Part shown: positions 20,272 through 63,906 of the stretch, piece after piece
Position numbering within the stretch: position 1 is the first letter of the stretch
Layout of the letters: each line of letters opens with the position of its first letter
Origin: Candidatus Microgenomatus sp.
Lineage (GTDB): Bacteria > Patescibacteriota > Microgenomatia > UBA8517
Length of the DNA: 64,000 nucleotides
NCBI GenBank assembly: GCA_020724585.1
Contig: DYGS01000001.1
Location: 2,893 to 66,892 of the forward strand
Reading direction: 5' to 3'
Translations under genes and position numbers: made by a program
The notes under the pieces: model-generated
The model's database searches: none
What the model saw: only the letters and a program-made list of their open reading frames with translations
What the model was told of the DNA's origin: nothing

Positions 20272-21387
20272 TCAAGAAACTTTGTGTAAAAGCGTAATTG
20301 GATCAGATGGCACATGACTGCCTTCCAAGTTTCTACCCACTCTAATTACTTGTTCTACTAGTCTATTTGCATATCCCCACTCGTTGTCATACCAAGCAAA
20401 AACCTTAACCATATTTCCCGCAACGACTTGCGTTAATGGCAAATCAACAATTGCGGACTCACTTCTTCCTACTATATCACTTGATACCAAAAATCCCTCA
20501 GAAACTGCTAATATTCCCTTATAAATGGGATTTTCTACTGCTTCTTTAAAGGCATTATTAACTTCTTCTACGCTTACTTCTTTTTTCAAGAGAAATGTAA
20601 AGTCAGTAATTGATCCTGTTGCAACAGGCACTCTTAAACTCATACCATCAAAGAGGCCTTTTAAATCAGGTATTGTTTCAGTTACGGCAATGGCCGCTCC
20701 TGTTGTTGTTGGAACTATATTCACCGCTGCAGCTCGGGCTCGGCGAAGATCTTTATGTGATCCATCTTGCAAATTTTGGTCATCAGTATAACTATGAATT
20801 GTTGTCATCATGGCTTTTTCTATACCAAATTTAGCTTGCATAACTGCTGCAACAGGAGCCACGCAGTTTGTAGTACATGATGCATTTGAAATTACTGTTG
20901 CGTCTCGCAGTCCTGAGCCTGTCGAAGGATTCTCGTTTACACCTAAGACATAAGTGCCAACATTACCACCTTTACTGGGAGCTGAAATAATTACCCTCTT
21001 AGCTCCACCAACAGCATGTTTTTTTGCATCCTCTTCTGAGGTAAATCTTCCAGTTGATTCAATAACCACATCAACTCCATATTTGCTCCATGGGATTAAA
21101 CTTGGATCTTTTTGGGCTAAAACTGGAACATCTACATTGCGTTCTGGAATTAACAAACTTCCTATTTTTGTATCTTCGTTTTTTTCTAAGTACTCTGTAC
21201 TCTGTACTTTGTACTGGTATTCCCGATACATAGTGTCGTAGTTAACCAAATGCCCCCAACCATGAACATCCATTGATCCTGAAGTATTAATTGCACCAAT
21301 CTTAATTTCATCTAGGTGCTTGGATACAGCAATCCTGAAGGCTAATCTTCCTATTCTTCCAAAACCATTGATTCCAACTTTTACCAT
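20272..21387 (-). CDS. gap: Glyceraldehyde-3-phosphate dehydrogenase, type I
   Basis: NGFGRIGR, SNASCTTN and WYDNEWGY motifs. Confidence 0.9.
   Translation of the reverse strand: MVKVGINGFGRIGRLAFRIAVSKHLDEIKIGAINTSGSMDVHGWGHLVNYDTMYREYQYKVQSTEYLEKNEDTKIGSLLIPERNVDVPVLAQKDPSLIPWSKYGVDVVIESTGRFTSEEDAKKHAVGGAKRVIISAPSKGGNVGTYVLGVNENPSTGSGLRDATVISNASCTTNCVAPVAAVMQAKFGIEKAMMTTIHSYTDDQNLQDGSHKDLRRARAAAVNIVPTTTGAAIAVTETIPDLKGLFDGMSLRVPVATGSITDFTFLLKKEVSVEEVNNAFKEAVENPIYKGILAVSEGFLVSSDIVGRSESAIVDLPLTQVVAGNMVKVFAWYDNEWGYANRLVEQVIRVGRNLEGSHVPSDPITLLHKVS
21186..21217 (+). repeat. GTAC-rich short repeat inside the gap coding sequence (encodes QYKVQSTEYL on the minus strand)
   Basis: ctaagtactctgtactctgtactttgtactgg. 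Same length as the corresponding GAPDH segment in other species, so this is a replacement rather than an insertion. Confidence 0.6.
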
Positions 21388-21562
21388 GTGAGCAGTATTT
21401 AGTTAAAGTATAAGATTAAGTTTAAGAATATTAAAGACTCACTTTGGAAAGACTTTGAGGTAATTCGTTAGCTATCTTTACTAATACTGTAGCTAACTTC
21501 ATGGCTTTCTGCCAAACAATAAGTTTTTCAAAATATAACATATCTTAAACTTGTACTTAATC

Positions 21563-22555
21563 TTAAACTGTTAGTGCTTCAATACCCACAAGATTATCAT
21601 TAACTAAATATTCAATCATTGCACCACCGCCTACGGATACCCAATCAAACTTGTCTGCCAAACTATATTTATTAATAGCAGCTAAACTATCTCCACCCCC
21701 CACTACTTTAAAAGCTTTTGAACTGGCTACAGCCTGAAAAACTTTTCTTGTTCCTTGACTATGGCCTTCATCTTCAAATTTACCTAAAACTCCTGCCAAA
21801 ACAATTGTTTTTGCTTTTAAAATTTCTTGGGTAAAAACTTCAATTGTATTTAATGTTATATCCTCTTTGTCTTGTATAAGATTCGCTATTATTATTTTTC
21901 CCGTTTGATTTCTAACACTTTTAAGTCCTTTGTCACCCATTAAATCAGGAAGTTTGCCTCCAACTAATACTTTATCTGCAAGTTTTGATAATGGCTCAAC
22001 CATTTTTAGTTTGTCTTCTTTAACTCCACTTATCAACACAACAAGTGGTCTTTCTGGTTCATTTTTAATTTTGTCTAAATTATTGATCTCGTTCTCTAAA
22101 TTTAGACCTGCATAAGAAGGCAAATATTTTGGTATCCCCACAATTGAAGCATGGCTTCTATGACAGACACTAAATGCTTCATTTACATAAATATCTGCCT
22201 TACTTGCCAACTCTTTGGCAAATTCCATAGCTCCTTTGTCCTGAGCGGGGTCGAGGGATTCTCTTGGGTCAAATCTCAAGTTTTCTAATACTTCAAAATC
22301 TGACCTTCCCAACATTTCTTGAAGAACTTTTTCAATAGGTTTTAGACTTAAACTTTCATCTTTAACTCCATTGGGCCTACCCCTATGCCCTATTAGTATT
22401 ATTTTTGAATTATTTTCAATTAAAAATTTAAGTGTAGGAACTAATCTTTGAAGTCTAATGTCTTTTTCTGATAGATCACTAACATCTAAATCCCCCCTAA
22501 CAATTATTCTTTTTCCTTTTAAGTCTTTTTTTGTGAGTGAAGAAAGTAGTTTCAT
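21563..22555 (-). CDS. pgk: Phosphoglycerate kinase (compact, 330 aa)
   Basis: LKGKRIIVRGDLDV, GHRGRPNG and GGGDS...GGGAM motifs. Confidence 0.8.
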   Translation of the reverse strand: MKLLSSLTKKDLKGKRIIVRGDLDVSDLSEKDIRLQRLVPTLKFLIENNSKIILIGHRGRPNGVKDESLSLKPIEKVLQEMLGRSDFEVLENLRFDPRESLDPAQDKGAMEFAKELASKADIYVNEAFSVCHRSHASIVGIPKYLPSYAGLNLENEINNLDKIKNEPERPLVVLISGVKEDKLKMVEPLSKLADKVLVGGKLPDLMGDKGLKSVRNQTGKIIIANLIQDKEDITLNTIEVFTQEILKAKTIVLAGVLGKFEDEGHSQGTRKVFQAVASSKAFKVVGGGDSLAAINKYSLADKFDWVSVGGGAMIEYLVNDNLVGIEALTV

Positions 22556-22585
22556 TACATTTAATCATAGTTTATTCTTACTAAG

Positions 22586-22616
22586 TTGACAATCACACAC
22601 ACACACTGGCTAGAAT
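22586..22616 (+). promoter_or_regulatory. sigma70 consensus promoter P3: TTGACA, 19-nt spacer containing (CA)6.5, TAGAAT
   Basis: Perfect -35 and a near-consensus -10. The ATG at 22624 lies 7 nt after the -10, implying a leaderless transcript. Confidence 0.6.
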
Positions 22617-22623
22617 ACGCTGT

Positions 22624-22848
22624 ATGGCTACAATTACAATTGTGAGAGATGGTAAACCAAATTTAACTTTGGATATTCCCGATGAAATCGTAAGTGTTGT
22701 TGGAGCAGAAGTGTTATTGATGGGTTTAGAGGCCGAAGAAACCAGTAATAGATGGGGAGGTATTGGTGAAGAAGAATTGGAAAAAATAAAAGAACTTGGT
22801 AGGGCATTAATAGGTAAACATGTGTACGGAGAAAGAGAAAGACTTTAA
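22624..22848 (+). CDS. hypothetical small acidic protein
   Basis: 74-aa ORF directly downstream of P3. Confidence 0.45.
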   Translation: MATITIVRDGKPNLTLDIPDEIVSVVGAEVLLMGLEAEETSNRWGGIGEEELEKIKELGRALIGKHVYGERERL

Positions 22849-23231
22849 TTATTAGCTTCTAATTCCTTTATTTCTTTGTCAAAACTTAAAACTTTATATT
22901 TGTTAGCATTGGCTGAAGAAAGCAGATAGCTATCTACAAAATGTAATTTATTTCTGTAATTAGTCCACATTCCCAAAAGCCCTTTTCTGTCCTCCACTAT
23001 TAGCCATTTTTGGGATAATAGAACTTCCATACATGACGCAATTTCATTAAGAGATTTTTTATAAAACGATTCTAGTACAAAACATGTTTCCGCCACAACA
23101 ACCACTTTGATTAGTAACTTTAACTCACCCGCTTCAGCTTTTTTGAATATATCAACAGATTTTTTATAAAGTATTTCACTATCTCCAACCAGATACCTAA
23201 GTATTATATTTGTGTCTATTATATTAATCAT
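22845..23231 (-). CDS. vapC: PIN-domain toxin (VapC-like), start trimmed to MINIIDTNIIL
   Basis: PIN N-terminal motif IIDTNIILRYL. The upstream antitoxin overlaps by 8 nt (ATGATTAA). Confidence 0.7.
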   Translation of the reverse strand: MINIIDTNIILRYLVGDSEILYKKSVDIFKKAEAGELKLLIKVVVVAETCFVLESFYKKSLNEIASCMEVLLSQKWLIVEDRKGLLGMWTNYRNKLHFVDSYLLSSANANKYKVLSFDKEIKELEANN

Positions 23232-41833: not shown

Positions 41834-41864
41834 TGTACTAAGTACTTTGTACTATGTACTGTAT
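41834..41864 (+). repeat. GTAC-rich short repeat (atgtactaagtactttgtactatgtactgta)
   Basis: 26/27 identical to 63886-63912. Member of a dispersed repeat family found at 7 or more loci. Confidence 0.7.
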
Positions 41865-42296: not shown

Positions 42297-42351
42297 GTTA
42301 AATTGAAAATTGAAAATTGTTAATTGAAAATTCCAAGCGTAGCTTGGACAT

Positions 42352-45114: not shown

Positions 45115-46767
45115 TCACTTCCGCTCGATATTAAAAAAAGCAAAGCCCTTTTGTGGAATCATTAGATACCCAGGGGCTCTTAAGTTAAAGGCTTGCTTAA
45201 ATTCATCACCAGTTAAATTGATGGTGCCATTAATGTTTATGTTAGTTGTCACTCCATTTCCTTGCGTTACTGTAACACTTGTAACTGAATTTACTCCTCC
45301 TTTTTGTTTTAATTCCGAAATGGAATAGGGATTTCCTCCCCAACAAGAAGTTGATGTTGATGTTACGCGCGAATCAGGACCTTGTTTCAATACAACGGCT
45401 GCATTAACAATATCTGTAAATTCTTCATTTGTTAGCCAGGGATTTGATCTGCCGCAAGTATCCCCCGTGTTTGAGTAACCTTTTCTGTACCAAGCCTTAT
45501 AAAGCCAAGGCGAACCACCCAGTTTTTCATATGTCCTCTCCATAAAATCTGATCCACCACTGCCATTTGTTGTATCCCAGCCTGAAGTTGTTATGTACCC
45601 CCCCGTGGTTGATGAGTAAAAAGTGGTCACTCCTTCAAGAACTTGCCCGCGAGTAGTAATTACAGCCTGTTTCCATGCATCAGGAGGATTATCTGCCTTA
45701 CTTTTTCTAAAAACCTGGCAAGATTCTGTTATACAAATTGTTTTCCCTTCTAATTTATATCTATATGCATATGTTCTGGCTGCAATTGCCTGCGCCTTTA
45801 GTGCTTCCGGATGCCATGAACTTGGCATCTCAGCAATACCCATCAAATAATAATCTTCAAAATTTACGCTTCCCACACCTGAAACGCTAATGTTTCCTCC
45901 TGTATCTTTATTAACCGGTTCTTTTCCATAATATGCCTTGAGAATATCGTTTGCTTTTTGATTATTTTGGGCTCTACCTCTCGCGCCGTATTGACTCATA
46001 CCTTTTCGATGAGTATAAGCACCAAAAGAAAATACAGCAAAAGATCCGCTTGGGGCAGACTCTCTAAAACCTTTGATTGATGCATTATAATCATCTGCCA
46101 GATCACTATCCCCCACACTTGCAGTAAAACCGCCCGATTTTGCCGCCAGCAATTCTTGTTGTTTGGCAGAAAGTGAAGATAAATACCCTTCAACTTTATT
46201 TACCTCGCCTGCCAAAAACTTTTCTTTTTCTGCAATCTGGGCTTTTAGCGAGGCTAGAGAATTTTTTGATTTTTCCAAATTTTCTTTATCTTTTTTAAGT
46301 TTTGACAAATCAGATACATATTTTTCTATTTGCTCTCTATCAGAATCAGCCGCTTTTTGTCTAAAATTTACTTCCCTAAATGCATCTAGCGCATCATGAG
46401 AGGCCAAAAAGGGCATTATCGGATCATAGAGCCTTATCAATTTATATGAGTTTTTGATTTTTTCCTCAAAAAGAGCTTTTGTGTAGGATAAATCATCTTC
46501 CCTTTTTTGAATCGATTTTTCCGTTTTTTGAATCTCTTGGGTTAAGTTGCCAATGCGTTTTCCTAAATCAACAATTTTGACCCTTAAATCTTCTAAATCC
46601 TGTTTATTTTTCTCATGTGCAGGAGTTAGAGCGTTGATTTCTCTTTGAATGCTATTTATCTGACAATCAAAATCGCTACTTGGACACTCTTGAGCCAAGC
46701 TAGGTAATAGCGAATAAGCAATAGCGAATAGAAAAACAATAACAAAAATTACAAATTTAAATTTCAT
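45115..46767 (-). CDS. secreted coiled-coil protein with C-terminal SpoIID/LytB-like domain
   Basis: Signal peptide, a ~250-aa coiled-coil, then HRKGMSQYGARGRAQ...ILKAYYG resembling the SpoIID/LytB signature (GMSQYGA...IL.HYY). Confidence 0.5.
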   Translation of the reverse strand: MKFKFVIFVIVFLFAIAYSLLPSLAQECPSSDFDCQINSIQREINALTPAHEKNKQDLEDLRVKIVDLGKRIGNLTQEIQKTEKSIQKREDDLSYTKALFEEKIKNSYKLIRLYDPIMPFLASHDALDAFREVNFRQKAADSDREQIEKYVSDLSKLKKDKENLEKSKNSLASLKAQIAEKEKFLAGEVNKVEGYLSSLSAKQQELLAAKSGGFTASVGDSDLADDYNASIKGFRESAPSGSFAVFSFGAYTHRKGMSQYGARGRAQNNQKANDILKAYYGKEPVNKDTGGNISVSGVGSVNFEDYYLMGIAEMPSSWHPEALKAQAIAARTYAYRYKLEGKTICITESCQVFRKSKADNPPDAWKQAVITTRGQVLEGVTTFYSSTTGGYITTSGWDTTNGSGGSDFMERTYEKLGGSPWLYKAWYRKGYSNTGDTCGRSNPWLTNEEFTDIVNAAVVLKQGPDSRVTSTSTSCWGGNPYSISELKQKGGVNSVTSVTVTQGNGVTTNININGTINLTGDEFKQAFNLRAPGYLMIPQKGFAFFNIERK

Positions 46768-48376: not shown

Positions 48377-48377
48377 C

Positions 48378-48746
48378 ATGAATAAAATTGCAGCAACATT
48401 AGATTTTTCAAACGGAGGATTAAAGGGTTTTGGAGCATTGGGATTAGAACAAAACCAAGCTAGTGAGTCGGTTTTTCAAGTTTTTATTTCTTCAGCCATT
48501 GGTATTATTAGTTTTGTTGCAATAGTTTGGTTTGTTTTCATAATCGTCACAAGTGGAATTTCATACATGAACGCTGGAGCTGATGCTAAAGCAGCCGAAG
48601 CAGCCAGAAAACGTATTACCAATGGTTTGATTGGTTTACTAATAACAATCTTTGGAATATTCATAATTAATTTGACAGGACAAATATTCGGCATCAAAAA
48701 TGTCTTAAATGTACCTGAAATGATTAAAAATTTAATTATTAAATAA
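48378..48746 (+). CDS. pilin-like two-TM hairpin protein, array member 5
   Basis: MNAGADAKAAEAARKRITNGLIGLLITIF. Confidence 0.6.
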   Translation: MNKIAATLDFSNGGLKGFGALGLEQNQASESVFQVFISSAIGIISFVAIVWFVFIIVTSGISYMNAGADAKAAEAARKRITNGLIGLLITIFGIFIINLTGQIFGIKNVLNVPEMIKNLIIK

Positions 48747-49123
48747 TGACGAACAACTTACTAGCTGGTGGTGGTGTTCCAAATACCATAACCAATCCAA
48801 TTTTTAAGGGAAGTATTTTTGACGCCATGATTTCAACAGAAGATGGTGGATATATTTTTTTTGGTACAGTTATTCCCAATCTAGTTGGTCTAATTTTTGT
48901 TGCAGGCGTGGTTGTTTTTATCTTTACATTTTTAATTGGAGCGTTTTCCTATATAATTTCCGGGGGGGACAAAACCAAGGTTGAAGGGGCAAAAGGTAGA
49001 ATTACTAGCGCACTTATAGGTATTGTTTTGCTATTATCTTCGTTTTTAATAATACAGTTGGTTGAAACATTTTTCAAAATAGATATTTTAACTATTGACA
49101 TAGGTCCATTGGTTATTCAATAA
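48746..49123 (+). CDS. pilin-like two-TM hairpin protein, array member 6
   Basis: ISGGDKTKVEGAKGRITSALIGIVLLL. Confidence 0.6.
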   Translation: MTNNLLAGGGVPNTITNPIFKGSIFDAMISTEDGGYIFFGTVIPNLVGLIFVAGVVVFIFTFLIGAFSYIISGGDKTKVEGAKGRITSALIGIVLLLSSFLIIQLVETFFKIDILTIDIGPLVIQ

Positions 49124-49135
49124 TACTTATTAGAT

Positions 49136-49486
49136 ATGAAGGATTTAGCAACAACAGCTTATTTATTAGCAGAGGAAAAAATCAATCTTCAGCCTGGCAA
49201 GGGAATTGCAGGTGAATTACAAGGTTTAAAACTTGACAACTTAGTTGGTGGTTTTCTAAATCTTATTTTGGTATTAGCCGCGTTGGTTTTCTTCTTTATT
49301 TTGGTTATAGGTGGAGTTAAATATATAGCTTCTGGTGGTGACAAAACCCATACTGAGGCTGCTCGAAGTCAAATTACAGCTGCTTTAATAGGTTTAGTTA
49401 TAGTTTTTGCAGCTTGGGCAATAGCTTCACTTATTGGAACATTCTTTGGAATAAACATATTCCAACTTGAAATACCAACAGTTTAA
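49136..49486 (+). CDS. pilin-like two-TM hairpin protein, array member 7
   Basis: ASGGDKTHTEAARSQITAALIGLVIVF. Confidence 0.6.
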   Translation: MKDLATTAYLLAEEKINLQPGKGIAGELQGLKLDNLVGGFLNLILVLAALVFFFILVIGGVKYIASGGDKTHTEAARSQITAALIGLVIVFAAWAIASLIGTFFGINIFQLEIPTV

Positions 49487-49534
49487 CTAATTCTTCACTT
49501 GTTCAAATATCTAGTTTAAGTTACACTAATTGTT

Positions 49535-49819
49535 ATGCAGCCACCAACATTAGACAAATTAGAAGGTGTTTTTACAAATTTAGTTTCAACACTTGTTGCA
49601 ATTGGTGCTTTTGGGCTTTTAATTATGCTTCTTTTGGGTGGTTTTAAATATTTGACATCCGGGGGCGATCAAAAAGCCGCCGAGGGAGCAAAAAATACTC
49701 TATCATATGCAATTGGAGGATTTTTGCTTCTCGCGGGTTCTTACTTAATTCTAAAAATCATTGAGAAAATTACAGGTGTGACTGATATTACACAATTTAA
49801 AATTTTTAAAGCTAATTAA
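49535..49819 (+). CDS. pilin-like two-TM hairpin protein, array member 8
   Basis: TSGGDQKAAEGAKNTLSYAIGGFLLLA. Confidence 0.6.
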   Translation: MQPPTLDKLEGVFTNLVSTLVAIGAFGLLIMLLLGGFKYLTSGGDQKAAEGAKNTLSYAIGGFLLLAGSYLILKIIEKITGVTDITQFKIFKAN

Positions 49820-49829
49820 TAAATGTCTA

Positions 49830-52313
49830 ATGAAAAACCTGTCTAAATTATCCTACTTCCTTTTATTTTTTCTATTTTTTGCCTTACTTATTGCCCATTA
49901 TTTGTTGAACACAACTATTGCTAAAGCTCAAGTTCCTGGTTTGAAATTTCCCTGCGATCAAACTGATGAGAATGAATTTAACACACTAAGACCCTACCAA
50001 GCCTCTCCATGTTCGGATGGCCCAAAAGCACTTTTCTGCAGTAATAAATTAGTAATTTTTGAAAATTTTCAACTAAAGGAAGAATGTAGAAGCCAGAAAA
50101 CTGGTTGTCCTAACTGTGACTGGACCTGTAACCTAAATTACCAGGTTGAGCCGCACAATTTAAATATCACACTTGACGAATCCGAATTACCAATCATGGG
50201 AAATACCCAAGATGATTTTGACAATGCCACAAAACTTAACGAATATGCCAGCTGGTATTTATCAGGCATTGATAGCACCGGTTCAACGGGCGAAACAACA
50301 GATGATCGAGTTGTCAATTTTTCAGGTCCAATTAACAAACTTTTGCCCCAAATGATACAAGATGCCGAAAGAAAAAGAACAATAGCTAGGGCCACAAATG
50401 AAAGGGAATATACAACCGATGACGATCAAGGTAAGTCAAGCCAAGTTACTTCTGTTGAAATGCATAACCAAATAGTTGCTTGCGGCGATGTATTCAAACT
50501 TTTTGGAATTTGGGATATCGGCCAGATTAAGCCTACTGATTGCTATAACGGCAATGAAAAAATAAGATTAAAGGACTGGATTGACGGAGATTTGTCTGAT
50601 TTTAATAAACTCATAAACAGGCTGGGCGGAGATGTCTGGAACAAGAGATATCCCCCTCTACCTTGGGCAGATGAAAATAATAAACCTTTTGAAAGCCAGA
50701 CAGCTTACCAAAAAGCATATCGAGAATGGAGAGGAGCATCTTGCATTACTATTCCAGGTATTGATAAAAATCTCTGTTTAGATAACCCTTTTGTACCAAA
50801 CAAGTGGGCTAAACTTTATCCCTATATACCTCTTTCATCTACAACCGATGTTGAAGGAAAAAATTATCTTTTAACAGGAGATGGACCGAATTATGTTCCG
50901 TCTCAAGGTACAGGGATTGAGAATGCACAGCATAAAAGTTATAAAAACGCCCCTCTCTATTTACCCCATTTACAGGAAGTCTATGACCTATCACAAATTT
51001 TGAATAAAACTTTTAGGCCGCAAGAATATGAAAGTGAGCCCTTACCCAAAACAACAGAGAAACTCAAAAAAGGTATTTCCACTAAAAGCGAAGATCTTTT
51101 GGGGCGTAATTCTGACCCAAAGCCAAATGACCAATTTGCATCCAGAGATCCCTACTCAACACTAGATTGCTCAGCAGTAAATGTTAGGGTAAATGAAGGG
51201 GATGATATTTTCCCGGGTGATAGACCAAGCGAACAAGAATTGTATGTTGAAGGAGTTGAGTACACAATCACTCAAGTTGAGTGCCATGAAGAAAATAGAA
51301 TAGAGTGTTTGCCAATTGGACCAGACCCAATACCCTGTACACGAAGAACAATAAATATACTAAATTGCCCCGCCCAAGTTGGAATAGAGTTTAAACTGGG
51401 GACAAAAACTCCACTTGCTGATGAAATTTTTTCTCAAACAGTTGCAGATTCAGGCAGTACCTTTAGAAAAATATTTCCAAAAGTAGAAGAGGGTGCCCCA
51501 GTTGAATGTATTGCAGATATTCCAACAACAACAAATGTAACATATAGCATTGATAACCCATTACACCAAGTTCCTGCAGGCGGTGAACAAGAATTCAAAC
51601 AAACATCATATCCAGCTGATGGAGCAAACAGTGGAACACAACTTACATTCCCCCACATAGGTTCTGTCTATGAATACTTTTTAAAAGGAATTCAAACCGC
51701 CTTAAGGCCAAAAGGTTTTGGCGAACCAATAGCAAATGGAAATTGTAAACCAACTGAGGAGGAAGAAGAATCAACATGTAAGGAAGATGTCCCAGACTCG
51801 GCAGTAAACAATAAATATTTGGGTCAATTCAAAACTAATTTTATTGATTTAGCAAACAGATGGAGTCAAAAGTGTCCTGGCGGAGAAAACAATATGGCTG
51901 AAAAATGCTACAATTTTGTAGCAAGTGAGGCCCAAAAGGCGGGTGTTAATCCAGCTTTTGTTTTAACAATCTGGCTCAACGAATCGGGCGCAAGTAACTA
52001 TTGTGAAGGAGGTACAACCACTCAAGACTTTGGTATGAACCTTCCATCAATTTATCAAAACATTTCCGAGCAACTTAAAAAGTTCTTAGATTTTGCTAAA
52101 GTAAAGTGGTGTGATGGACAGTCGGGTTTTGTTGAGCCCATGCATGGGTGGCTTAGTAGATTTCAAAGTTCTGCGGGAGTATGTAATCCAAACGATCCAG
52201 TTGCAACACAATACTACCATGATGTTATGAATACCACATGGAGCTGGGTTACTGGATGCACTACTGGAGGTAAATTTGGAATTCAGTGGCCCACAGATGG
52301 AAACTGTCCGTAA
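49830..52313 (+). CDS. large secreted Cys-rich protein with possible C-terminal lysozyme-like (GH73/glucosaminidase-like) domain
   Basis: Signal/TM anchor, many paired Cys throughout. C-terminal AFVLTIWLNESGAS...DFGMN resembles the E-S-G ... F-G motif of GH73 muramidase/FlgJ-like domains (tentative). Confidence 0.45.
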   Translation: MKNLSKLSYFLLFFLFFALLIAHYLLNTTIAKAQVPGLKFPCDQTDENEFNTLRPYQASPCSDGPKALFCSNKLVIFENFQLKEECRSQKTGCPNCDWTCNLNYQVEPHNLNITLDESELPIMGNTQDDFDNATKLNEYASWYLSGIDSTGSTGETTDDRVVNFSGPINKLLPQMIQDAERKRTIARATNEREYTTDDDQGKSSQVTSVEMHNQIVACGDVFKLFGIWDIGQIKPTDCYNGNEKIRLKDWIDGDLSDFNKLINRLGGDVWNKRYPPLPWADENNKPFESQTAYQKAYREWRGASCITIPGIDKNLCLDNPFVPNKWAKLYPYIPLSSTTDVEGKNYLLTGDGPNYVPSQGTGIENAQHKSYKNAPLYLPHLQEVYDLSQILNKTFRPQEYESEPLPKTTEKLKKGISTKSEDLLGRNSDPKPNDQFASRDPYSTLDCSAVNVRVNEGDDIFPGDRPSEQELYVEGVEYTITQVECHEENRIECLPIGPDPIPCTRRTINILNCPAQVGIEFKLGTKTPLADEIFSQTVADSGSTFRKIFPKVEEGAPVECIADIPTTTNVTYSIDNPLHQVPAGGEQEFKQTSYPADGANSGTQLTFPHIGSVYEYFLKGIQTALRPKGFGEPIANGNCKPTEEEEESTCKEDVPDSAVNNKYLGQFKTNFIDLANRWSQKCPGGENNMAEKCYNFVASEAQKAGVNPAFVLTIWLNESGASNYCEGGTTTQDFGMNLPSIYQNISEQLKKFLDFAKVKWCDGQSGFVEPMHGWLSRFQSSAGVCNPNDPVATQYYHDVMNTTWSWVTGCTTGGKFGIQWPTDGNCP

Positions 52314-52321
52314 AATATAAA

Positions 52322-53155
52322 TTAGATAGTTATATAATACTTCCCCCCACTTTCAGTAATTAAGCCTTTTATACCCATAATTGAAAGTGTTGTTCCTGTT
52401 TCCTCAATCCTCATTCCTGTTTTTCTTGCAATTTCGTCAATTTCCAATGGCTCAAGTTGTAGAATTTTATAAATTCGTTCTTCCTGTTTTGGCAGTTCTG
52501 GTCTATTTTTAATTTGTAATTTGTCATTTATAATTTGGCATTCCGCGATATCCTTCGCGGCCGTTGCCATCTTTGCATCTCCACTTTTAATTAATTCGTT
52601 ACACCCTACAGATACTCTTGAATTAATAGGCCCGGGAATTGCCCAAACTTTTTTACCTGCCTTTTTAGCTAGTTTGGCAGTTACCAAACTTCCACTGTTT
52701 TCACTTGCCTCAATAACCAAAACTCCAAGTGAAGCAAGATTTACAACTACTTTATTTCTTTGAGGATATTTCCACATACTAGGTTTAGCATTATCCTCAT
52801 ATTCAGAAACAATTGATCCACCTGATTTTATAATCTCATCATATAACTTTTTGTTTTCGGGTGGATAAATATGGTTTAGACCGCAACCAAACACTGCAAT
52901 GTGTTTTCCCCCATATTCCAATGTTTTTAATGCGACTTCTGTATCCACACCATACATAAAACCAGAAATTGTAGTTATGCTATTTGCAACTAAATCACAA
53001 ACAAATTTATCTACAACATCCCTTCCATATCTTGTCATCTGTCTACTTCCAACAATTGCAATTGAATTGGCAATTAAATTATTTGGATCCTCCCCACGAT
53101 AATTTAACTTCTTTTTTGTCTTCCCTGTTTTAATCTCTGTTGTTTTTGTTTCCAT
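52322..53155 (-). CDS. dprA: DNA-processing protein DprA (Smf)
   Basis: IAIVGSRQMTRYG...GFMYGVDTEVALKTLEYGGKHIAVFGCGL Rossmann-like DprA core. Confidence 0.85.
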   Translation of the reverse strand: METKTTEIKTGKTKKKLNYRGEDPNNLIANSIAIVGSRQMTRYGRDVVDKFVCDLVANSITTISGFMYGVDTEVALKTLEYGGKHIAVFGCGLNHIYPPENKKLYDEIIKSGGSIVSEYEDNAKPSMWKYPQRNKVVVNLASLGVLVIEASENSGSLVTAKLAKKAGKKVWAIPGPINSRVSVGCNELIKSGDAKMATAAKDIAECQIINDKLQIKNRPELPKQEERIYKILQLEPLEIDEIARKTGMRIEETGTTLSIMGIKGLITESGGKYYITI

Positions 53156-53168
53156 AATATCAACTAAT

Positions 53169-53237
53169 TGTCATTGCGAACGCAGTGAAGCAATCTATTG
53201 TTGTGGATTGCCATGTCGCAAGCTCCTCGCAATGACA
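53169..53237. repeat. 11-bp inverted repeat (tgtcattgcga ... tcgcaatgaca) with 47-nt spacer between dprA and yraN
   Basis: Perfect reverse-complement arms at 53169-53179 and 53227-53237. Confidence 0.6.
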
Positions 53238-53242
53238 CAGAT

Positions 53243-53647
53243 TCAAAAACTTATATTCTCGTAATGAGTTATTCTGCCCGTCTCCTCTACTATACAAATT
53301 GCATCTATTTGATACCTGTCATAAGTTTTGGCGATATCAGGGTTATTTAATAAATACATTTCCGCAGTTCTTTGAACCTGCATCAACTTATTTTTTCCTA
53401 TCATTTCTTCAGGCGTTCCATAATCTTCTGTTTGTTTAAATTTAACTTCCACAAAAACCAAAATCGCCTGCCCTGAGGGCATTCGGCTGAGCTCAGTCGT
53501 AGCCCCTGCCCAACGTGTAGCAATAATATCTAATTCACCAAATTTGGTTGAATTATTTTGGTCAATTATCTGATAGCCATGGTCAATTAGCCATTTAACT
53601 GCTAATTCTTCGCCTTGATTTCCTTTTAACCTATTAAATTGCTTCAT
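53243..53647 (-). CDS. yraN: YraN-family (UPF0102) endonuclease
   Basis: GEELAVKWLIDHGYQIIDQN...GELDIIA motif. Confidence 0.75.
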   Translation of the reverse strand: MKQFNRLKGNQGEELAVKWLIDHGYQIIDQNNSTKFGELDIIATRWAGATTELSRMPSGQAILVFVEVKFKQTEDYGTPEEMIGKNKLMQVQRTAEMYLLNNPDIAKTYDRYQIDAICIVEETGRITHYENISF

Positions 53648-53739
53648 GTTGACAAATTGTGTATAATGCAGTTAAGGTAAGCCGAGAGTTAAGCGGAACC
53701 CACGCGTAAAAGCGGGTGGTGATGTCGACAACTTTCGGT

Positions 53740-54201
53740 TTATTTTTTTAAATTCCAATACTTTATAATGTCTTCGTATTTTAAAACTAGCGCTTTACTC
53801 TTGTCTTTTCTTCTGTGAATACTCCACGCCAATTTATGTGACGGAGAATGTTTTCCAACTCTGACAAAAAATATTTGTGGTTTATTAATAATCTTTGAAA
53901 TTGCAAATAATTTGTATATTGTTTCTTTTATAAATTTATCTCTATTTGAATATTCCTCGTCAATTTCTAATTTAGTTATGTTTTTACTGAATTTAATTAT
54001 CAATATGAAGATCATTGTTGCGAACACTGTTTGAATTAAATCCGACCGTGCAACAATTGTTTTTCTTAAGAACTTTACTAATTTTATTTTTTCTGAAACA
54101 GATATATAAACTGCGCCGCAAAAATGGTTGGCGAGAGAAATAACGGTGTGGGTGTTTAAGTGTTCTAATTTTCCACTTTGATCAACTTCAGCTTTCATCA
54201 T
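53740..54201 (-). CDS. hypothetical protein
   Basis: 153-aa ORF translationally coupled (ATGA) to comM. Confidence 0.35.
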   Translation of the reverse strand: MMKAEVDQSGKLEHLNTHTVISLANHFCGAVYISVSEKIKLVKFLRKTIVARSDLIQTVFATMIFILIIKFSKNITKLEIDEEYSNRDKFIKETIYKLFAISKIINKPQIFFVRVGKHSPSHKLAWSIHRRKDKSKALVLKYEDIIKYWNLKK

Positions 54202-55757
54202 TATTCATTTCTAACACGATATTGCAACGCTTCAGCAACATGATTTGGAAGAATCCGATTGGTTCGGCTTCGCTCACCACCCTCAGCTACGCTGAGGTCT
54301 GCAATTGTTTGGGAAACTTTTATCAGTCTAAAATAAGTTCTGGCTGATAGATTATATGTATTTACAGCTTGTTTAAGTAAAACTAAAGCTTCCGGAGCAA
54401 TATCAACAAATTCCTTAATGTGTTTATTTTTCATGTTGGCATTGGTATAAAATGACAAGCCTTTAAATCTTTTATTCTGAATTTCTCTAGCCTTAACCAC
54501 TTCTTCTCTTATTTGTTTTGAGTTTTTAGCTATTCGCTTTTCGCTATTCGCTATCAGCTTATTAACATCGACAGCTGGTACATTCAAATGCAAGTCAATT
54601 CTATCCATTAAAGGTCCAGAAAGTCTTGATTGATAATTCATAACCATTCTTGGTGTACATATGCATTCTCTTTTGGGATCACCCAAGTAGCCACAAGGGC
54701 AAGGGTTAGCGGCCGCAATTAACATAAAACTTGCAGGAAAATTAACACTTCCTGCAATTCTGGTTATTGAAACCTTTCTATCTTCCAAAGGTTGTCTTAA
54801 GGCTTCCAAGGTTCCTCTTGAAAACTCAGGAAACTCATCCAAAAACAAAACTCCATTATGGGCAAGCGATATTTCCCCCGGATGTGGGTTTGTTCCTCCT
54901 CCAATTAAGCCTATTAAACTGGTTGTGTGGTGTGCAGTTCTAAATGGACGATTTCGAATTAACCCCTCTCCTGCAGGAATAAGCCCTGAAACAGAATAAA
55001 TTTTAGTAACTTCTAATGCTTCATCTTCGTTTAAAGGTGGCAATATACCTGCCGTGGCCCGAGCCAGCATTGTTTTACCTGCCCCAGGAGTTCCAACTAA
55101 AAATATATTGTGTCCTCCCGCAGCTGCGATTGTCATTGCTCTTTTTGCCGACTCTTGGCCAATAATTTCTGCAAAGTCAAACTCGACAGAACAGTACTCA
55201 GTACTTAGTACAGAGTACTTAGAACTTTTGATTTTCTCAATTTTCTTCAATCCATTTAAATGTGCAATTAATTCTGAGAGTGATTTAACAGGATAAACAT
55301 CAATTCCAGATAAAACTGATGCTTCATTGGCAGATTCACTTGGGACAAAAACACTTTTAATCCCCTTTTGTTTTGCAGCCAGTCCTAAAAGAAAAACTCC
55401 TTTGGTATGTCTTAGTCCTCCATCAAGTGAAAGTTCACCATAGAAAAAACTTTTTTCGATCGGTAACTTAACAAGTTCCATTGAAGCCAAAATTCCAATT
55501 GCGATAGGAAGATCATACAAAGATCCCTCTTTGGGAATATCAGCAGGAGCAAGATTAACTACAATTTTCTGATTTGGAAAATCAATGTCTGAATTTAAAA
55601 TTGCAGTTTTTACTCTTTCTTTTGCTTCTTCTATAGATTTATTGGGAAGTCCAATTATTGAAAATCCGGGGAATCCTTTTTTGAAAACATTAACTTCAAC
55701 CTCAATTAAATTTGGAGTTAATCCAAAATGCGACGCCGAAAGTATCTTCGTGAGCAT
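54201..55757 (-). CDS. comM: YifB/ComM-family Mg-chelatase-like AAA+ ATPase (competence protein ComM)
   Basis: N-terminal Lon-like domain, Walker A GTPGAGKTMLA, and the C-terminal ChlI-like region. Confidence 0.85.
   Translation of the reverse strand: MLTKILSASHFGLTPNLIEVEVNVFKKGFPGFSIIGLPNKSIEEAKERVKTAILNSDIDFPNQKIVVNLAPADIPKEGSLYDLPIAIGILASMELVKLPIEKSFFYGELSLDGGLRHTKGVFLLGLAAKQKGIKSVFVPSESANEASVLSGIDVYPVKSLSELIAHLNGLKKIEKIKSSKYSVLSTEYCSVEFDFAEIIGQESAKRAMTIAAAGGHNIFLVGTPGAGKTMLARATAGILPPLNEDEALEVTKIYSVSGLIPAGEGLIRNRPFRTAHHTTSLIGLIGGGTNPHPGEISLAHNGVLFLDEFPEFSRGTLEALRQPLEDRKVSITRIAGSVNFPASFMLIAAANPCPCGYLGDPKRECICTPRMVMNYQSRLSGPLMDRIDLHLNVPAVDVNKLIANSEKRIAKNSKQIREEVVKAREIQNKRFKGLSFYTNANMKNKHIKEFVDIAPEALVLLKQAVNTYNLSARTYFRLIKVSQTIADLSVAEGGERSRTNRILPNHVAEALQYRVRNE
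55191..55225 (+). repeat. GTAC-rich short repeat inside comM coding sequence (encodes ...SKYSVLSTEYCS... on the minus strand)
   Basis: acagtactcagtacttagtacagagtacttagaac shares k-mers (agtacagagtac, gtacttagtac) with intergenic copies at 62075, 63346 and 63875. Confidence 0.6.
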
Positions 55758-55818: not shown

Positions 55819-55855
55819 ACAGTATACTGTTCCTAGTGTACTAGGAACTAGGAAC
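55819..55855 (+). promoter_or_regulatory. tandem palindromic operator-like sites upstream of the HTH-PRTase gene
   Basis: Perfect 12-bp palindrome acagtatactgt (55819-55830), then a 9-bp inverted repeat gttcctagt-gt-actaggaac (55829-55848) and an extra taggaac half-site. They lie 6-40 nt upstream of the ATG at 55861. Confidence 0.5.
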
Positions 55856-55860
55856 TTTTT

Positions 55861-56862: not shown

Positions 56863-57267
56863 ATGCCTAACCTCAATACAACTAATAATTTAAAGCTAAG
56901 AACTAAGAGCTTAAAATCAAATAGCCTCAGAGATAGAACCTTTGACTTTTCTATTCAAATAATTAAATTAATTTCTAATTTTCCAAACAAAACTGTTTAT
57001 TGGAAGATTGGAGATCAATTATTGCGATCAGGAACAAGTATCGGTGCAAATGTTACAGAAGCTCAGGGCTCATTATCTAAAAAAGAATTTATTAGCTTTT
57101 ACCATATAGCTTTAAAAAGCGCCAAAGAAACTGTTTATTGGCTTGAGATACTGCAAAAGTCTAACTTGATTAAAGAATCAGAATTATCTTGGTTTATTGA
57201 TGAATCAAACCAATTAGTTAAAATGCTTACATCGAGTATACTTACATTAAAGAGAAATTTGAATTAA
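56863..57267 (+). CDS. four-helix-bundle protein (TIGR02436-type, 23S rRNA intervening-sequence protein family)
   Basis: GDQLLRSGTSIGANVTEAQGSLSKKEFISFYHIALKSAKETVYWLEIL signature. Confidence 0.7.
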   Translation: MPNLNTTNNLKLRTKSLKSNSLRDRTFDFSIQIIKLISNFPNKTVYWKIGDQLLRSGTSIGANVTEAQGSLSKKEFISFYHIALKSAKETVYWLEILQKSNLIKESELSWFIDESNQLVKMLTSSILTLKRNLN

Positions 57268-61040: not shown

Positions 61041-61210
61041 GCCAAACTTTGTTTATTATTTTATTCACTTTGTGAAGGGTGAGGAGGAAAGAGGGAAAAG
61101 GAATGAGGAAAGAGAGAAAACAGAACAGAGGAAAGAGAAGTGAGGAGAGAGTTAACCACAAAAACTCATTCCTACTTACTCATTCCTGTTTCCTGTTCAC
61201 TCATTCCTAA
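61041..61210. repeat. homopurine (GA-rich) tract followed by its imperfect reverse complement (cctcattcc repeats)
   Basis: ggaatgagg occurs in the purine arm, and cctcattcc occurs three times in the pyrimidine arm, so the region can fold into a long imperfect hairpin or H-DNA. Confidence 0.55.
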
Positions 61211-61573
61211 TTACTTACTTACGCTCTTTATAAGCCCAGCCAACATTCTAGATATCTCCTCATTTCTAGCCACGAACTCCTTTACTTTGTTTCTGTCAAA
61301 TTCTTTCATCTCTGCAATTATTTCCAACCAACAACCGGTTTCGTAATTTGAGCCCCTTGCAATATCTAAAAATAGTTTAAAACTTTTCTTGGAGTTTCTT
61401 CCGTAACCTTCTGCAATATTTGCAGGAATTGATCCAACCGCACGAAATAATTGATTTAAAAGAAACTGCTTTGGAATAGGCAATTTATAATCTGAAAAGT
61501 GTTGAATAATATCAACTGTTAATCGTTTTGACTTTTGATATACAAGAAGTTCTTTGTGTGAAGTTAAACTCAT
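61211..61573 (-). CDS. four-helix-bundle protein (TIGR02436-type), second copy
   Basis: LVYQKSKRLTVDI...AVGSIPANIAEGYGRNSKKSFKLFLDIARGSNYETGCWLEI. Confidence 0.7.
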   Translation of the reverse strand: MSLTSHKELLVYQKSKRLTVDIIQHFSDYKLPIPKQFLLNQLFRAVGSIPANIAEGYGRNSKKSFKLFLDIARGSNYETGCWLEIIAEMKEFDRNKVKEFVARNEEISRMLAGLIKSVSK

Positions 61574-61599
61574 ATCTTAATCATACACTTTCCTCATTC

Positions 61600-62040
61600 C
61601 TGTCTCCTCTTTTCTATCTAGGAATAGCTTAGAAATCTAATATCTAATTTAATCTTATGTTCTTTAGAAAATATTTTTTTAATTCACTCCAATTAAATTC
61701 AACTAACATATTTGGATCAACATCATTTTTTGCATCACCAAAATAAATCAGTGCTTTTTTTAGGTATTAGTTACAAACCGAGAATTTTTAAGGTTTAATT
61801 TTATATATATGTTGCCAAAAATTTTTAGATTTTTTTGAAAGTCTACCATTTGAAATTACATTTTTAATTAACTCCCTATCAAAATTTTTATTAGGTCAAT
61901 CAATTGCCTTGGCATTTCCTAATTCTAGTATTCTATTAATAAAATACTTGTTTTTTAGTTACATCTACTTTTTTTGGATCAATGTCCCAAAAATATTTGT
62001 GAAGTGTTTTTAGCAGCATCATGTTCATATTATACTATTT
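61600..62040 (-). pseudogene. possible decayed remnants of DUF4143-type ATPase paralog(s)
   Basis: Minus-strand fragments translate to ALIYFGDAKNDVDPNMLVEFNW and LLKTLHKYFWDIDPKKVDV, resembling the K-x-YF-x-D motif region (KLYFLDTGL) of the adjacent intact ATPase. No intact ORF. Confidence 0.3.
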
Positions 62041-62043
62041 TAC

Positions 62044-62088
62044 TTGTGAAAATGTCGGTCTAGTTGCACCAAAAGCAGTACAGAGTAC
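62044..62088 (+). repeat. 45-bp direct repeat A flanking the AAA ATPase gene (ttgtgaaaatgtcggtctagttgcaccaaaagcagtacagagtac)
   Basis: 41/45 identical to 63314-63358. Confidence 0.75.
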
Positions 62089-62118
62089 AAAGAAAGCATA
62101 GAGAAACAATTGTTATAT

Positions 62119-63267
62119 CTATATTTGTGTATACGGAAGATATTGGACGCCTCCAGTAACTTTTAGGGGCTCTTTGATTAAGGAAATTATTGTTTTAGAT
62201 TTAAAATCTTTTGATTTTTTCTCAAAATAATTCATATTTTTTTCAAATTCTGTATCTGTCTTTGCCGCAATTTTAAACTCATACATATGAAGCCCGTTGT
62301 CATGAATAAGTAAGTCAACTTCGTGGCCTTCTTTGTCTCTTAAATAATATAAATATGGTATTTTGCCTTGGTTTATATATTTTTTGATAAATTCACAAAC
62401 CAAGTGGGTTTCATAAAAAGCTCCAGACATTGCTCCTGCTCTCATGGTGTCTGGGCTATTCCACCTAGTTAGAAATGAGGCCAGTCCTGTATCTAAAAAG
62501 TATAATTTCGGTGCTTTAATTATTCTTTTTGTTATATTTGCAAAATATGGACGGAGCAAATAAATTTGTTTTGTAGCTTCTAAAATTGAAAGCCATTCAC
62601 TTGCCGTAGTAATTGGAATTCCTGCATCTCTTGCCATGTCGGAAATATTTAAAATCTGGGCGGTCCTTGCTGCACAAACTTCAATAAAACGGTTAAATTC
62701 TGATATTTTTGTTATGCCGAAAATATCAGACAAGTCTCTGTCTAAATAAGTTTGTATATAAGAATTGAAAAAAGTATTTCTGTCTGGTTTATTTTTTGAT
62801 TGAAAAATTGGAAATCCCCCTTCAAAGATTTCTTCGAAAAGTGATTTTATTTTAAGCTTCTCTTTCTGAGATAGACCCAATAAGTCTAGGATTGCAACTC
62901 TCCCAGCAAGTGACTCTTGAATGTTTTTAATGAGATTAAACTGTTGAGATCCTGTAATCCAGAATTGTCCATTTTTATCTGATCTGTCAACTATTTCCTT
63001 TATCACTGAGAAAAGTTCGGGTGCATATTGTACTTCATCAATAATTACTGGTAATTTTAATTGCTCTATAAAAAGTTTTGGATCATCTTTAGCGCTTCTC
63101 CTTTGGACTACATCATCAAGTGTTACATATGTTCTATTCTCATTTTCTGAAAGTTTTTTTAATAATGTAGTCTTACCAACCTGCCTTGGCCCACCAAGAT
63201 ATACGACCTTAAAAGTTCTACTTGCTCGCAAGACAACTTCTTCTAGCAGCCTAGGTATATAGTTCAT
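62119..63267 (-). CDS. AAA-family ATPase with DUF4143-like C-terminal domain
   Basis: Walker A GGPRQVGKTT, Walker B VIIDEVQY, KLYFLDTGL motif. Confidence 0.7.
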   Translation of the reverse strand: MNYIPRLLEEVVLRASRTFKVVYLGGPRQVGKTTLLKKLSENENRTYVTLDDVVQRRSAKDDPKLFIEQLKLPVIIDEVQYAPELFSVIKEIVDRSDKNGQFWITGSQQFNLIKNIQESLAGRVAILDLLGLSQKEKLKIKSLFEEIFEGGFPIFQSKNKPDRNTFFNSYIQTYLDRDLSDIFGITKISEFNRFIEVCAARTAQILNISDMARDAGIPITTASEWLSILEATKQIYLLRPYFANITKRIIKAPKLYFLDTGLASFLTRWNSPDTMRAGAMSGAFYETHLVCEFIKKYINQGKIPYLYYLRDKEGHEVDLLIHDNGLHMYEFKIAAKTDTEFEKNMNYFEKKSKDFKSKTIISLIKEPLKVTGGVQYLPYTQI

Positions 63268-63313
63268 ATATGACTATATTACATTGACAGCGTAAATTAG
63301 TCAAGCACCAATT

Positions 63314-63358
63314 TTGTGAAAATGTTGATCTAGTTGCACCATAAACAGTACAGAGTAC
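63314..63358 (+). repeat. 45-bp direct repeat B flanking the AAA ATPase gene
   Basis: ttgtgaaaatgttgatctagttgcaccataaacagtacagagtac matches copy A. Confidence 0.75.
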
Positions 63359-63420
63359 TTAGTACAAAGTACATAAATATCACTGTGAAACATTAAACAA
63401 GTTGCAACAAAAGCTTCACA

Positions 63421-63490
63421 TAGTACGATAAAGGTAGTACCTAGTACAAAGTACACAGTACATAATACACAGTACATAGTACATAGTACA
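63421..63490 (+). repeat. GTAC-rich microsatellite-like tract (agtac/catagtaca units)
   Basis: tagtacaaagtacacagtacataatacacagtacatagtacatagtacatag. The track ORF 63301-63513 is just its translation. Confidence 0.7.
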
Positions 63491-63511
63491 TAGAAAAAAC
63501 AAACACAAAAC

Positions 63512-63886
63512 ATGGTTAATAGTTATAAAGATTTAACTGTATTTCAAAAATCAAAAGCTTTAACTATTGACGTAATCAAATACTTTAAGAAAAATAAAGT
63601 AAATAAATCAAATGACTTTTTACTTAATCAAGTTTTTAGATCTGTAAGTTCAGTTGGAGCTAATTTGGCTGAAGGATTTGGAAGAAACTATAGTCAAAAT
63701 TTTAAACAATTTGTTGGAATTGCTAGAGGTTCATCTTTCGAAACAGAATATTGGCTTGAGATATTATTAGATTTAAATGAATTTGATCAAAAAATTATTA
63801 AAGAATTCATTGAAAGAAATACAGAAATAAACAAAATGTTAACAGGATTAATGAAAAATATGAAAGGAGAATCGACTAAGTACTAA
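63512..63886 (+). CDS. four-helix-bundle protein (TIGR02436-type), third copy
   Basis: LTVFQKSKALTIDV...SVSSVGANLAEGFGRNYSQNFKQFVGIARGSSFETEYWLEIL. Confidence 0.7.
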   Translation: MVNSYKDLTVFQKSKALTIDVIKYFKKNKVNKSNDFLLNQVFRSVSSVGANLAEGFGRNYSQNFKQFVGIARGSSFETEYWLEILLDLNEFDQKIIKEFIERNTEINKMLTGLMKNMKGESTKY

Positions 63887-63906
63887 GTACTCTGTACTAT
63901 GTACTG
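63875..63906 (+). repeat. GTAC-rich short repeat overlapping the stop of the third four-helix-bundle gene
   Basis: actaagtactaagtactctgtactatgtactg. Shares a 16-mer (ctaagtactctgtact) with the copy inside gap (21186-21201) and 26/27 nt with 41836-41863. Confidence 0.7.

Follow-up and report, generated by a model that had tools for sequence, protein, structure and literature searches.

The 64,000-nt stretch of Candidatus Microgenomatus sp. analyzed here (contig DYGS01000001.1, positions 2,893 to 66,892; hereafter the window) carries a dispersed family of GTAC-rich repeats, which prove to be short tandem arrays of a heptanucleotide, (A/T)GTAC(A/T)N. In the explanation that we favor, and hold with moderate confidence, they are heptanucleotide simple-sequence repeats resembling the short tandemly repeated repetitive (STRR) class, found in two settings: as paired inverted arms around cassettes of the intervening sequence (IVS) type that contain a gene for a four-helix-bundle protein, and as solitary arrays turned over in place, some of them in the coding sequences of gap and comM. 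The observation itself is real and non-random. An earlier sequence-only reading of this DNA had described a repeat family at seven GTAC sites, both intergenic and in frame inside gap and comM; all seven are present where it placed them, and the in-frame peptides it reported, QYKVQSTEYL in gap and SKYSVLSTEYCS in comM, are confirmed. Taken as a whole that reading was partly supported; it had overlooked that the sites are period-7 tandem arrays, that these genes also hold arrays of other units, and that the cluster at 63.4-63.9 kb supplies the inverted arms of a PF05635 gene.

The unit had been given as AGTAC-N2-3-GTAC. We find instead strict tandem heptamers: GTAC-to-GTAC spacings below 60 nt are exactly 7 in 21 cases and 14 in 2, and Tandem Repeats Finder likewise called the GTAC sites as period 7. 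The three-unit pattern GTACNNNGTACNNNGTAC, with at most one mismatch, has 18 matches in the window against 0.00 expected from 100 dinucleotide-preserving shuffles. Seven is the sole enriched period, with 11 arrays against 0.8 expected and with tandem periods 4-6 and 8-12 at background level, and the autocorrelation of intergenic DNA peaks at lags 7, 14, 21 and 28. The GTAC arrays span 16-70 nt and hold 2-8 imperfect units, and arrays of other units (GTATATT, AATTGAA, ATAGCGA, AAATNNN and GAGGAAA) co-occur with them. Head-to-tail 7-nt units, over-representation of period 7 and dispersed, mostly intergenic arrays of several unit families are the features of the STRR-like class, and across the window and its relatives 65 of 94 arrays lie outside long open reading frames (ORFs). 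Four other assemblies, from different samples, are identical to window positions 62000-64000 over the parts that each covers, so the arrays are not assembly artefacts. No window array has an Rfam match.

As a word, GTAC occurs 101 times in the whole window (97 expected) and, with the arrays masked, 71 times (89 expected, ratio 0.79). It is not enriched overall, and the signal is therefore one of periodic clustering and not of the word itself. The same caution applies to the long matches between copies. A reported 26/27 match is genuine, but it joins 41835-41861 to 63880-63906 and not the coordinates first given, and the shared 16-mer CTAAGTACTCTGTACT occurs at 21186 and 63883, with its reverse complement at 55207 and 63347. 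Four spacers (TTA, ATA, AGA and AAA) account for 24 of the 29 GTAC units, and random reassignment of the 3-nt spacers to the units commonly produces shared 16-20-mers by itself (P about 0.7-0.9). Because so few spacer types dominate, long shared k-mers (16-27 nt) are to be expected, and we rejected them as a sign of copying. In a separate observation, ACGT is strongly avoided window-wide (8 occurrences, where trinucleotide frequencies predict 46; ratio 0.17), which suggests an ACGT-specific restriction system in the lineage; the remaining 4-bp palindromes have ratios of 0.68-1.15 over the whole window.

The paired setting is seen at two ORFs, genes a and b of the table below, that match PF05635 (‘23S rRNA intervening sequence protein’, S23p or four-helix bundle). 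The inverted arms of cassette b, the largest of the GTAC arrays, are complementary over 35 nt and those of cassette a over 28 nt, the latter built on a heptamer unrelated to the GTAC unit. Folding of the transcripts predicts long-range stems enclosing each ORF (z = -4.07 and -2.08), about 35 bp long for cassette b and about 28-35 bp across both cassettes, and an internal 3' hairpin in cassette a (z = -4.3). The proteins of genes a and b are 52% identical, and yet their arms are built on different heptamers. All 10 four-helix-bundle genes tested, from the window and from relatives, have flank-complementarity scores of 17-21 of 24, compared with 14.6 +/- 1.0 for controls, just 2 of 668 of which reach 19 or more. 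Arm-bracketed four-helix-bundle genes, each with a different unit, were found at seven loci of relatives (L141, L146, L156, L172, L200, L202 and L205; L numbers are our handles for the loci compared), and an Akkermansia genome has such a gene likewise bracketed by paired arms. Among paralogs 52-65% identical the arm sequences are unrelated and complementarity is retained. This turnover of arm sequence with kept complementarity argues for a selected stem, kept pairing being what selection for pairing would predict.

A related Microgenomates genome (L196) has a 23S rRNA gene of 4,445 nt (12483-16927), as against a 2,925-nt model, and this gene holds a PF05635 ORF (13705-14157) between heptamer-built inverted arms. 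We therefore read the window cassettes as IVS-type elements outside rRNA. They share with IVSs the PF05635 protein and the terminal inverted repeats with a predicted long stem around the ORF; a location in 23S rRNA (helix 45 or 25) is found in L196 and not in the window, which contains no rRNA match and where both cassettes lie between protein-coding genes. The neighbors of the four-helix-bundle genes are an AAA_14/DUF4143 ATPase gene, genes resembling those of type IV secretion systems (T4SS) and genes for unknown proteins. None of the ten large ORFs near the cassettes has a reverse transcriptase domain, and the combination that defines a diversity-generating retroelement, a reverse transcriptase with a template/variable repeat pair beside an Avd-like gene, was not found in the part of the genome covered. 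The cassettes occupy different intergenic positions in related genomes, and the orthologous 30-nt spacer of L204 (L204 3515-3546) lacks the third four-helix-bundle gene of the window, gene c (56863-57267). The opening codons of gene c (ATGCCTAA) agree with those of the gene that follows the spacer in L204, which gives the impression that gene c was inserted at that gene's start.

In coding sequence the period has a particular consequence: since 7 is not divisible by 3, successive units fall in three reading phases, giving the peptide S-T-x-Y-x-V-Q for the GTAC heptamer, and the frame is kept only by sets of three units. The gap peptide aligns without gaps with EYEVKSEE-type ortholog sequences, so that there is no indel at the array, and with a one-residue gap with PGEVAYDDQY of Thermus GAPDH. 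The suggestion that this segment has the same length as canonical GapA accordingly holds for the repeat-encoded part and fails beyond it, where the Thermus sequence shows gaps of 11 and 2 residues. Orthologs of gap that are 72-85% identical carry (AGTACAN)3-4 at the same codons. The comM array lies in the linker that runs from the ChlI domain (residues 20-141) to Mg_chelatase, the AAA+ domain (194-399). This linker is hypervariable among orthologs, the nearest of which (91% identical) carry other sequences there; the comM peptide is lineage-specific. DNA of three relatives has heptamer arrays of other units at this linker. Its register is shared: GTAC in the window and YCAC in L205 both stand at nt 12, 19, 26 and 33, and the first linker of L204 has AAACTCN units. 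Where the Mg_chelatase match (194-399) gives way to the Mg_chelatase_C match (411-514), comM has an ATAGCGA array that is near-identical in the window and L205, though the proteins are 83% identical; L204 has a GTNACYN array there. The AAATNNN array of dprA lies between the DNA_processg_A (17-196) and winged-helix (218-271) domains; in L203 this segment carries a GTACAGN-type array. The N-terminal segment of the SpoIID-like protein has a GTAC array in L204 and a TTCTNNN array in L203. Across three relatives the units differ at the matching places in comM, dprA and the SpoIID-like gene, and by Pfam coordinates the arrays of comM and dprA fall in inter-domain linkers.

The second ComM linker (residues about 400-412) occurs among orthologs P0121-P0240 in a few recurrent versions (NNPSLVTRNSK, NSEKRIxxNSK, PTSHEASRG and others), the distribution of which does not track overall identity to the window protein. 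Both versions for which DNA was examined are heptamer-encoded.

Rickettsia palindromic elements, to which the repeats had been likened, are palindromes of about 100-150 bp that add tens of residues to proteins. They too are dispersed, both between genes and, in frame, within conserved genes, where they occupy surface or linker positions. The copies described here are, by contrast, tandem 7-nt arrays of 16-70 nt, and the analogy fails on its defining features. No length is added at the gap or comM arrays relative to orthologs, so that the coding copies are replacements and not insertions, as the sequence-only reading had recognized. The analogy is further undermined by the different heptamer array that a relative's comM holds at these codons in identical register, and by the presence of the gap array at the same codons in the orthologs noted above. 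Absence of length change, together with the shared register, fits turnover in place better than insertion of this kind.

The window comes from a Candidatus Woesebacteria genome of the candidate phyla radiation; the closest named relatives of its GAPDH and ComM proteins are in metagenome-assembled genomes of Candidatus Woesebacteria and Patescibacteria. In 894 kb of metagenomic sequence flanking the gap orthologs of relatives there are 83 period-7 arrays, compared with 3-36 for each other period; these arrays have many units and are often clustered, and at orthologous sites relatives differ in both unit and array length. Further afield, a scan of a genome collection found (GTACNNN)4 arrays in many phyla among the matches listed. 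A four-helix-bundle gene lies near 1 of 120 such loci of other phyla among the matches listed (Akkermansia L057), in a search that included a general profile built from 133 representatives, and near none of 67 viral GTAC-array loci. A universal link between GTAC arrays and four-helix-bundle genes is thereby ruled out. Viral contigs hold heptamer arrays of other cores of the same composition in comparable numbers (ACTAG 74, AGATC 42, ACATG 15 and AGACT 110, against 67 for AGTAC), as well as arrays of period 6 (at least 120) and period 8 (47). The matches in other phyla are accordingly ordinary tandem repeats and do not make up one family, nor does GTAC stand out as a heptamer core across life.

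Repeated elements of about 200 nt, with no ORF and no Rfam match, were also noted in Clostridium hydrogenum CUEA01 (L089 724-934; L076 1610-1817; L118 4472-4681; L100 3823-4403; L065 6520-6656). A conserved core, GAAGGATGATTT ... AAATCATCCTTC, is bounded in these by inverted (AGTACAN)3-4 and (TGTACTN)3-4 arrays; the left array of the L065 element has a different unit (CACAATN).

We propose that in the paired setting the two arms, once transcribed, would anneal and close a stem of about 28-35 bp around the whole PF05635 gene, and that these stems would serve as double-stranded RNA processing sites at which the cassette transcript is cut out of its surroundings. By analogy with the IVSs of 23S rRNA, the enzyme cleaving them may be RNase III. 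The solitary setting comprises the GTAC arrays in the smpB leader, gap and comM and the arrays of other units in comM, dprA and the SpoIID-like gene. Those in coding sequence fill, codon for codon, variable segments that orthologs encode by other heptamer arrays. All would be born, homogenized and decaying in place through slipped-strand or unequal exchange, a concerted evolution in which slippage is the presumed generator. Coding arrays would persist only where the three-phase peptide is stop-free and tolerated and the length is a multiple of three, with selection keeping length and reading frame. Any function of the solitary copies would be conjectural.

Several of our results weigh against this proposal. 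The five assemblies compared show no difference in copy number, ongoing slippage was not observed, and the arrays are imperfect; the five represent one strain, with 0 variable columns in 2 kb. Gene c has no arrays and its flank complementarity is weak (17 of 24). The 894 kb of relatives' gap flanks contain no GTAC array except in gap, three closer relatives hold only the GTAC array of L204 and the GTACAGN-type array of L203 dprA, and independent birth in place leaves seven loci with one unit in 64 kb unaccounted for. On a tree of the gap protein built without the array segment, the gap array is scattered, requiring 18 parsimony changes for 21 carriers. Its codon identity, pooled from pairwise counts, is about 0.78, compared with about 0.46 at synonymous sites elsewhere in the gene; it falls off at the array edges, and the array includes the rarer codons TAC and GAG in a 35% G+C genome. 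Conservation of codons combined with scatter suggests that this segment may be subject to selection at the nucleotide level or to exchange or recombination confined to it.

Adjoining the gap array on its 3' side (window 21130-21185), the window and L001 share a near-identical 26-nt stretch, GAAAAAAACGAAGATACAAAAATAGG, outside which their codon identity in gap is about 0.56, and a LEKNEDTKIG module is present in gap orthologs scattered on the tree. These observations hint at recombination limited to the segment.

The arrays might instead be copies of a small mobile element that colonizes intergenic and coding DNA much as the Rickettsia elements do, or single arms that four-helix-bundle cassettes have left in place. 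One unit at seven loci in both orientations would then be readily understood, as would the scattered gap array, the varying intergenic positions of the cassettes and the missing gene c in the L204 spacer, and the Clostridium elements, about 200 nt long with inverted GTAC heptamer arrays at their ends, offer a precedent. We nevertheless consider such an origin unlikely: length is unchanged in gap and comM, other heptamers occupy orthologous codons in the same register, similarity ends at the array edges, the small unit repertoire predicts the long shared k-mers, and neither terminal repeats nor target duplications were seen around solitary arrays. It is also conceivable that the arrays are multivalent DNA or RNA binding sites for a specific factor, for which the four-helix-bundle protein is a candidate with gap, comM and smpB as its regulon, or that transcripts pair in trans. 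PF05635 proteins (Avd) are pentamers that bind nucleic acid, 4-6 units flank each four-helix-bundle gene, one array abuts the smpB start codon, nucleotide conservation of the gap array exceeds what the protein needs, and gap mRNA, as read from the sequences, is complementary to the cassette b 3' arm over 22 of 23 nt. We doubt this account, because units are swapped freely at orthologous sites, solitary arrays have no consistent predicted structure, and a four-helix-bundle gene accompanies so few GTAC arrays of other phyla (1 of 120 among the matches listed). Nor does the arm unit correlate with protein similarity: the proteins of L141 and L146 are, at 65% identity, closer than those of genes a and b (52%) and have different arms, and the GTAC-armed Akkermansia protein has 26% identity to gene b. 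A cognate specificity of protein for arm was ruled out on this basis.

That GTAC, a 4-bp palindrome, might mark restriction-modification or recombination hotspots had been raised by the sequence-only reading, and the avoidance of ACGT does indicate that restriction pressure acts on the genome. Outside the arrays, however, the GTAC ratio is comparable to those of GATC, CTAG and CATG, so that avoidance of GTAC is not seen; non-palindromic units (ATAGCGA, AAATNNN and GAGGAAA) behave alike, and viral cores of the same composition form heptamer arrays about equally (15-110 stretches against 67). We give this idea almost no credence. We also think it very improbable that the coding arrays have nothing to do with the intergenic repeats and arise by chance from the codons used for a conserved peptide. 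The Y, V and S of the gap peptide do align with conserved residues of orthologs (EYEVKSEE) and of Thermus GAPDH, the ortholog L131 retains QSTE through AGC ACT codons, and in the 894 kb of flanks GTAC arrays are confined to gap. On the other side stand the excess codon identity of the gap array, rarer codons included, the wholly unconserved comM peptide and the recurrence of period 7 in many coding linkers. A bolder possibility, which we offer as a speculation with a small chance of being correct, is that an active templated process rewrites tolerant sites (linkers, signal peptides and mRNA leaders) from a small, genome-specific repertoire of units, with Avd-like cassettes as its source or driver, or with arm RNAs pairing in trans with gap, comM and smpB transcripts. 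If true, it would account for one unit at seven loci, for unit switching without change of length or register, and for a gap array that is scattered on the tree yet conserved in nucleotides.

Table. Heptamer arrays, cassette components and direct repeats in the window
Feature	Position	Strand	Details
GTAC heptamer array in gap, 4 units	21186..21217	-	mRNA strand CCAGTACAAAGTACAGAGTACAGAGTACTTAG; residues 57-66, QYKVQSTEYL
GTAC heptamer array in comF-like/smpB spacer, 4 units	41834..41864	+	
GTAC heptamer array in comM, 4 units	55191..55225	-	encodes KYSVLSTEYC
45-nt direct repeat, copy 1	62044..62090	+	terminal two GTAC units at 62075-62090
Direct repeat, copy 2	63314..63375	+	91% identical to copy 1, then four GTAC units (63346-63375)
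45-nt direct repeat, degenerate third copy	63382..63426		
Cassette b 5' arm, about 8 units AGTACAN	63421..63493	+	ends 19 nt before four-helix-bundle ATG
Four-helix-bundle gene b, PF05635 (23S_rRNA_IVP / S23p)	63512..63886	+	124 aa; E 1.5e-27
Cassette b 3' arm, 4-5 units NTGTACT	63875..63909	+	86% complementary to 63453-63487
Cassette a 3' arrays, GAGGAAA-type and TCATTCC-type heptamers	61084..61215	-	outer arm 61085-61112; GAGGAAA array 61084-61151
Four-helix-bundle gene a, PF05635	61211..61573	-	120 aa; E 3.8e-26
Cassette a 5' arm	61588..61615	-	86% complementary to 61085-61112
ATAGCGA heptamer array in comM	54529..54555	-	encodes IANSEKRIA
ATAGCGA/CTATTCG-family array, SpoIID-like gene	46706..46731	-	N-terminal hydrophobic segment (part)
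AAATNNN heptamer array in dprA	52504..52537	-	interdomain
AATTGAA heptamer array	42298..42332	+	smpB stop codon to tmRNA gene
GTATATT heptamer array	44..72	not assigned	

The array in the smpB leader ends 3 nt ahead of the first smpB ATG (41865) and has a TATAAT hexamer immediately upstream. The transfer-messenger RNA (tmRNA) gene (42352-42736) is directly 3' of smpB, which thus sits between two different arrays, GTAC in its leader and AATTGAA in the tmRNA-side spacer. The final codons of gene b lie within the 3' arm of cassette b, after which comes a short GC hairpin. Direct-repeat copy 1 adjoins the 3' end of an AAA_14/DUF4143 ATPase gene (62119-63267, minus strand), which lies between the 45-nt direct repeats at 62044-62088 and 63314-63358; the arrangement resembles either a ‘leader plus array’ module that has been duplicated or the junction of a cassette. 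L203 has a GTATATN array, similar to GTATATT of the window, between a UPF0102 gene and dprA. The spacer upstream of comM contains a hairpin-forming TAGGAAC/GTTCCTA repeat (55826-55858), and L204 has a related AGTTCCT tandem repeat in the same place (L204 4522-4542). Competence-related genes (the comF-like gene, dprA and comM) are clustered at 41217-55757, where eight small ORFs correspond by synteny to T4SS_pilin genes of relatives. T4SS-like PrgI/TraC/TraG genes lie beyond the window end, and the TraG-like gene of L203 contains an intein. Just past the window, about 7.5-10 kb beyond its end, are dnaN and dnaA (L206 17400-20375), the spacers of which hold DnaA-box-like repeats, TGTGGATAA, at about 12-nt spacing and further heptamer arrays (AAGAATT, ACTAGAA and CAATTTA).

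Repeats of seven nucleotides were recognized in cyanobacteria in 1990 and subsequently in Xanthomonas, Beggiatoaceae and the Coxiella IVS, and the repeats described here belong to this known, poorly understood class. Modestly new are the covarying heptamer arms around S23p cassettes outside rRNA and the register-preserving unit swaps in protein linkers. Our literature search turned up no relevant account of heptamer repeats in the candidate phyla radiation; such repeats pervade the genomes of Woesebacteria and related Microgenomates of this group. Non-rRNA S23p cassettes tie the intervening sequences of rRNA to a wider cassette type, and arrays that swap units at fixed position and length would give a simple route to linker diversity. 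Current views are not overturned by these results, and the mechanism is one that we infer. The arrays are unlike phase-variable contingency loci, in which perfect repeats turn a gene, typically a surface or virulence gene, on or off by their copy number: their units are imperfect, gap, comM and dprA are housekeeping hosts, and the assemblies are invariant.

Mazel reportedly described the cyanobacterial STRR sequences, which are tandem heptamers, in 1990. As in Calothrix and Nostoc, the window has tandem 7-nt units in many short dispersed arrays of several families, mostly intergenic. It differs in its host, which belongs to the candidate phyla radiation, in its unit, in its short imperfect arrays (2-8 units), in the sizeable minority that is in frame in housekeeping genes, and in the swapping of units at orthologous sites. 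Heptamers are given as the most abundant class of long simple repeats in most surveyed genomes (Mrazek 2007, via PMC4679880 and PMC4692102), and polymerase slippage is proposed as their origin (PMC4679880, PMC4692102). The TAACTGA repeats of marine Beggiatoaceae, cyanobacteria and Bacteroidetes form sets of 2-6 heptamers, many of them directly before start codons that lack a Shine-Dalgarno sequence and some within ORFs, mostly outside regions of assigned function; horizontal spread is suspected, with no evident mechanism (PMC4679880). Our smpB array is likewise directly upstream of a start codon, and a CAACTGA-like unit is present in L200 and L202. In the TAACTGA system, however, one unit dominates and related heptamers seldom repeat, whereas here many units coexist and arrays also occur in internal linkers of conserved enzymes. 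The GGGAATC repeats of Xanthomonas are heptameric and intergenic, with about 70 convergent inverted pairs able to form stem-loops, and their positions are conserved between species while their lengths vary (PMC4692102). They are G-rich and quadruplex-forming, whereas our units are A/T-rich, and that paper reports no link to PF05635 genes such as we see. The tandem repeats of Borg elements have independent origins, evolve rapidly and give rise to disordered regions in proteins (PMC9879509); the resemblance lies in repeats that encode new linker-like protein segments, and the difference in a period, here 7, that is not a multiple of 3. The 23S IVS of Coxiella burnetii, Leptospira and others has an ORF of the PF05635 family enclosed by terminal inverted repeats, which pair as a stem of about 28 bp; in Coxiella tandem heptamers (GACAGAT) form the 5' region and RNase III cleaves in the stem (PMC4990558). 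The window cassettes differ in lying between protein-coding genes, in having both arms made of heptamer arrays, and in that their processing is a prediction.

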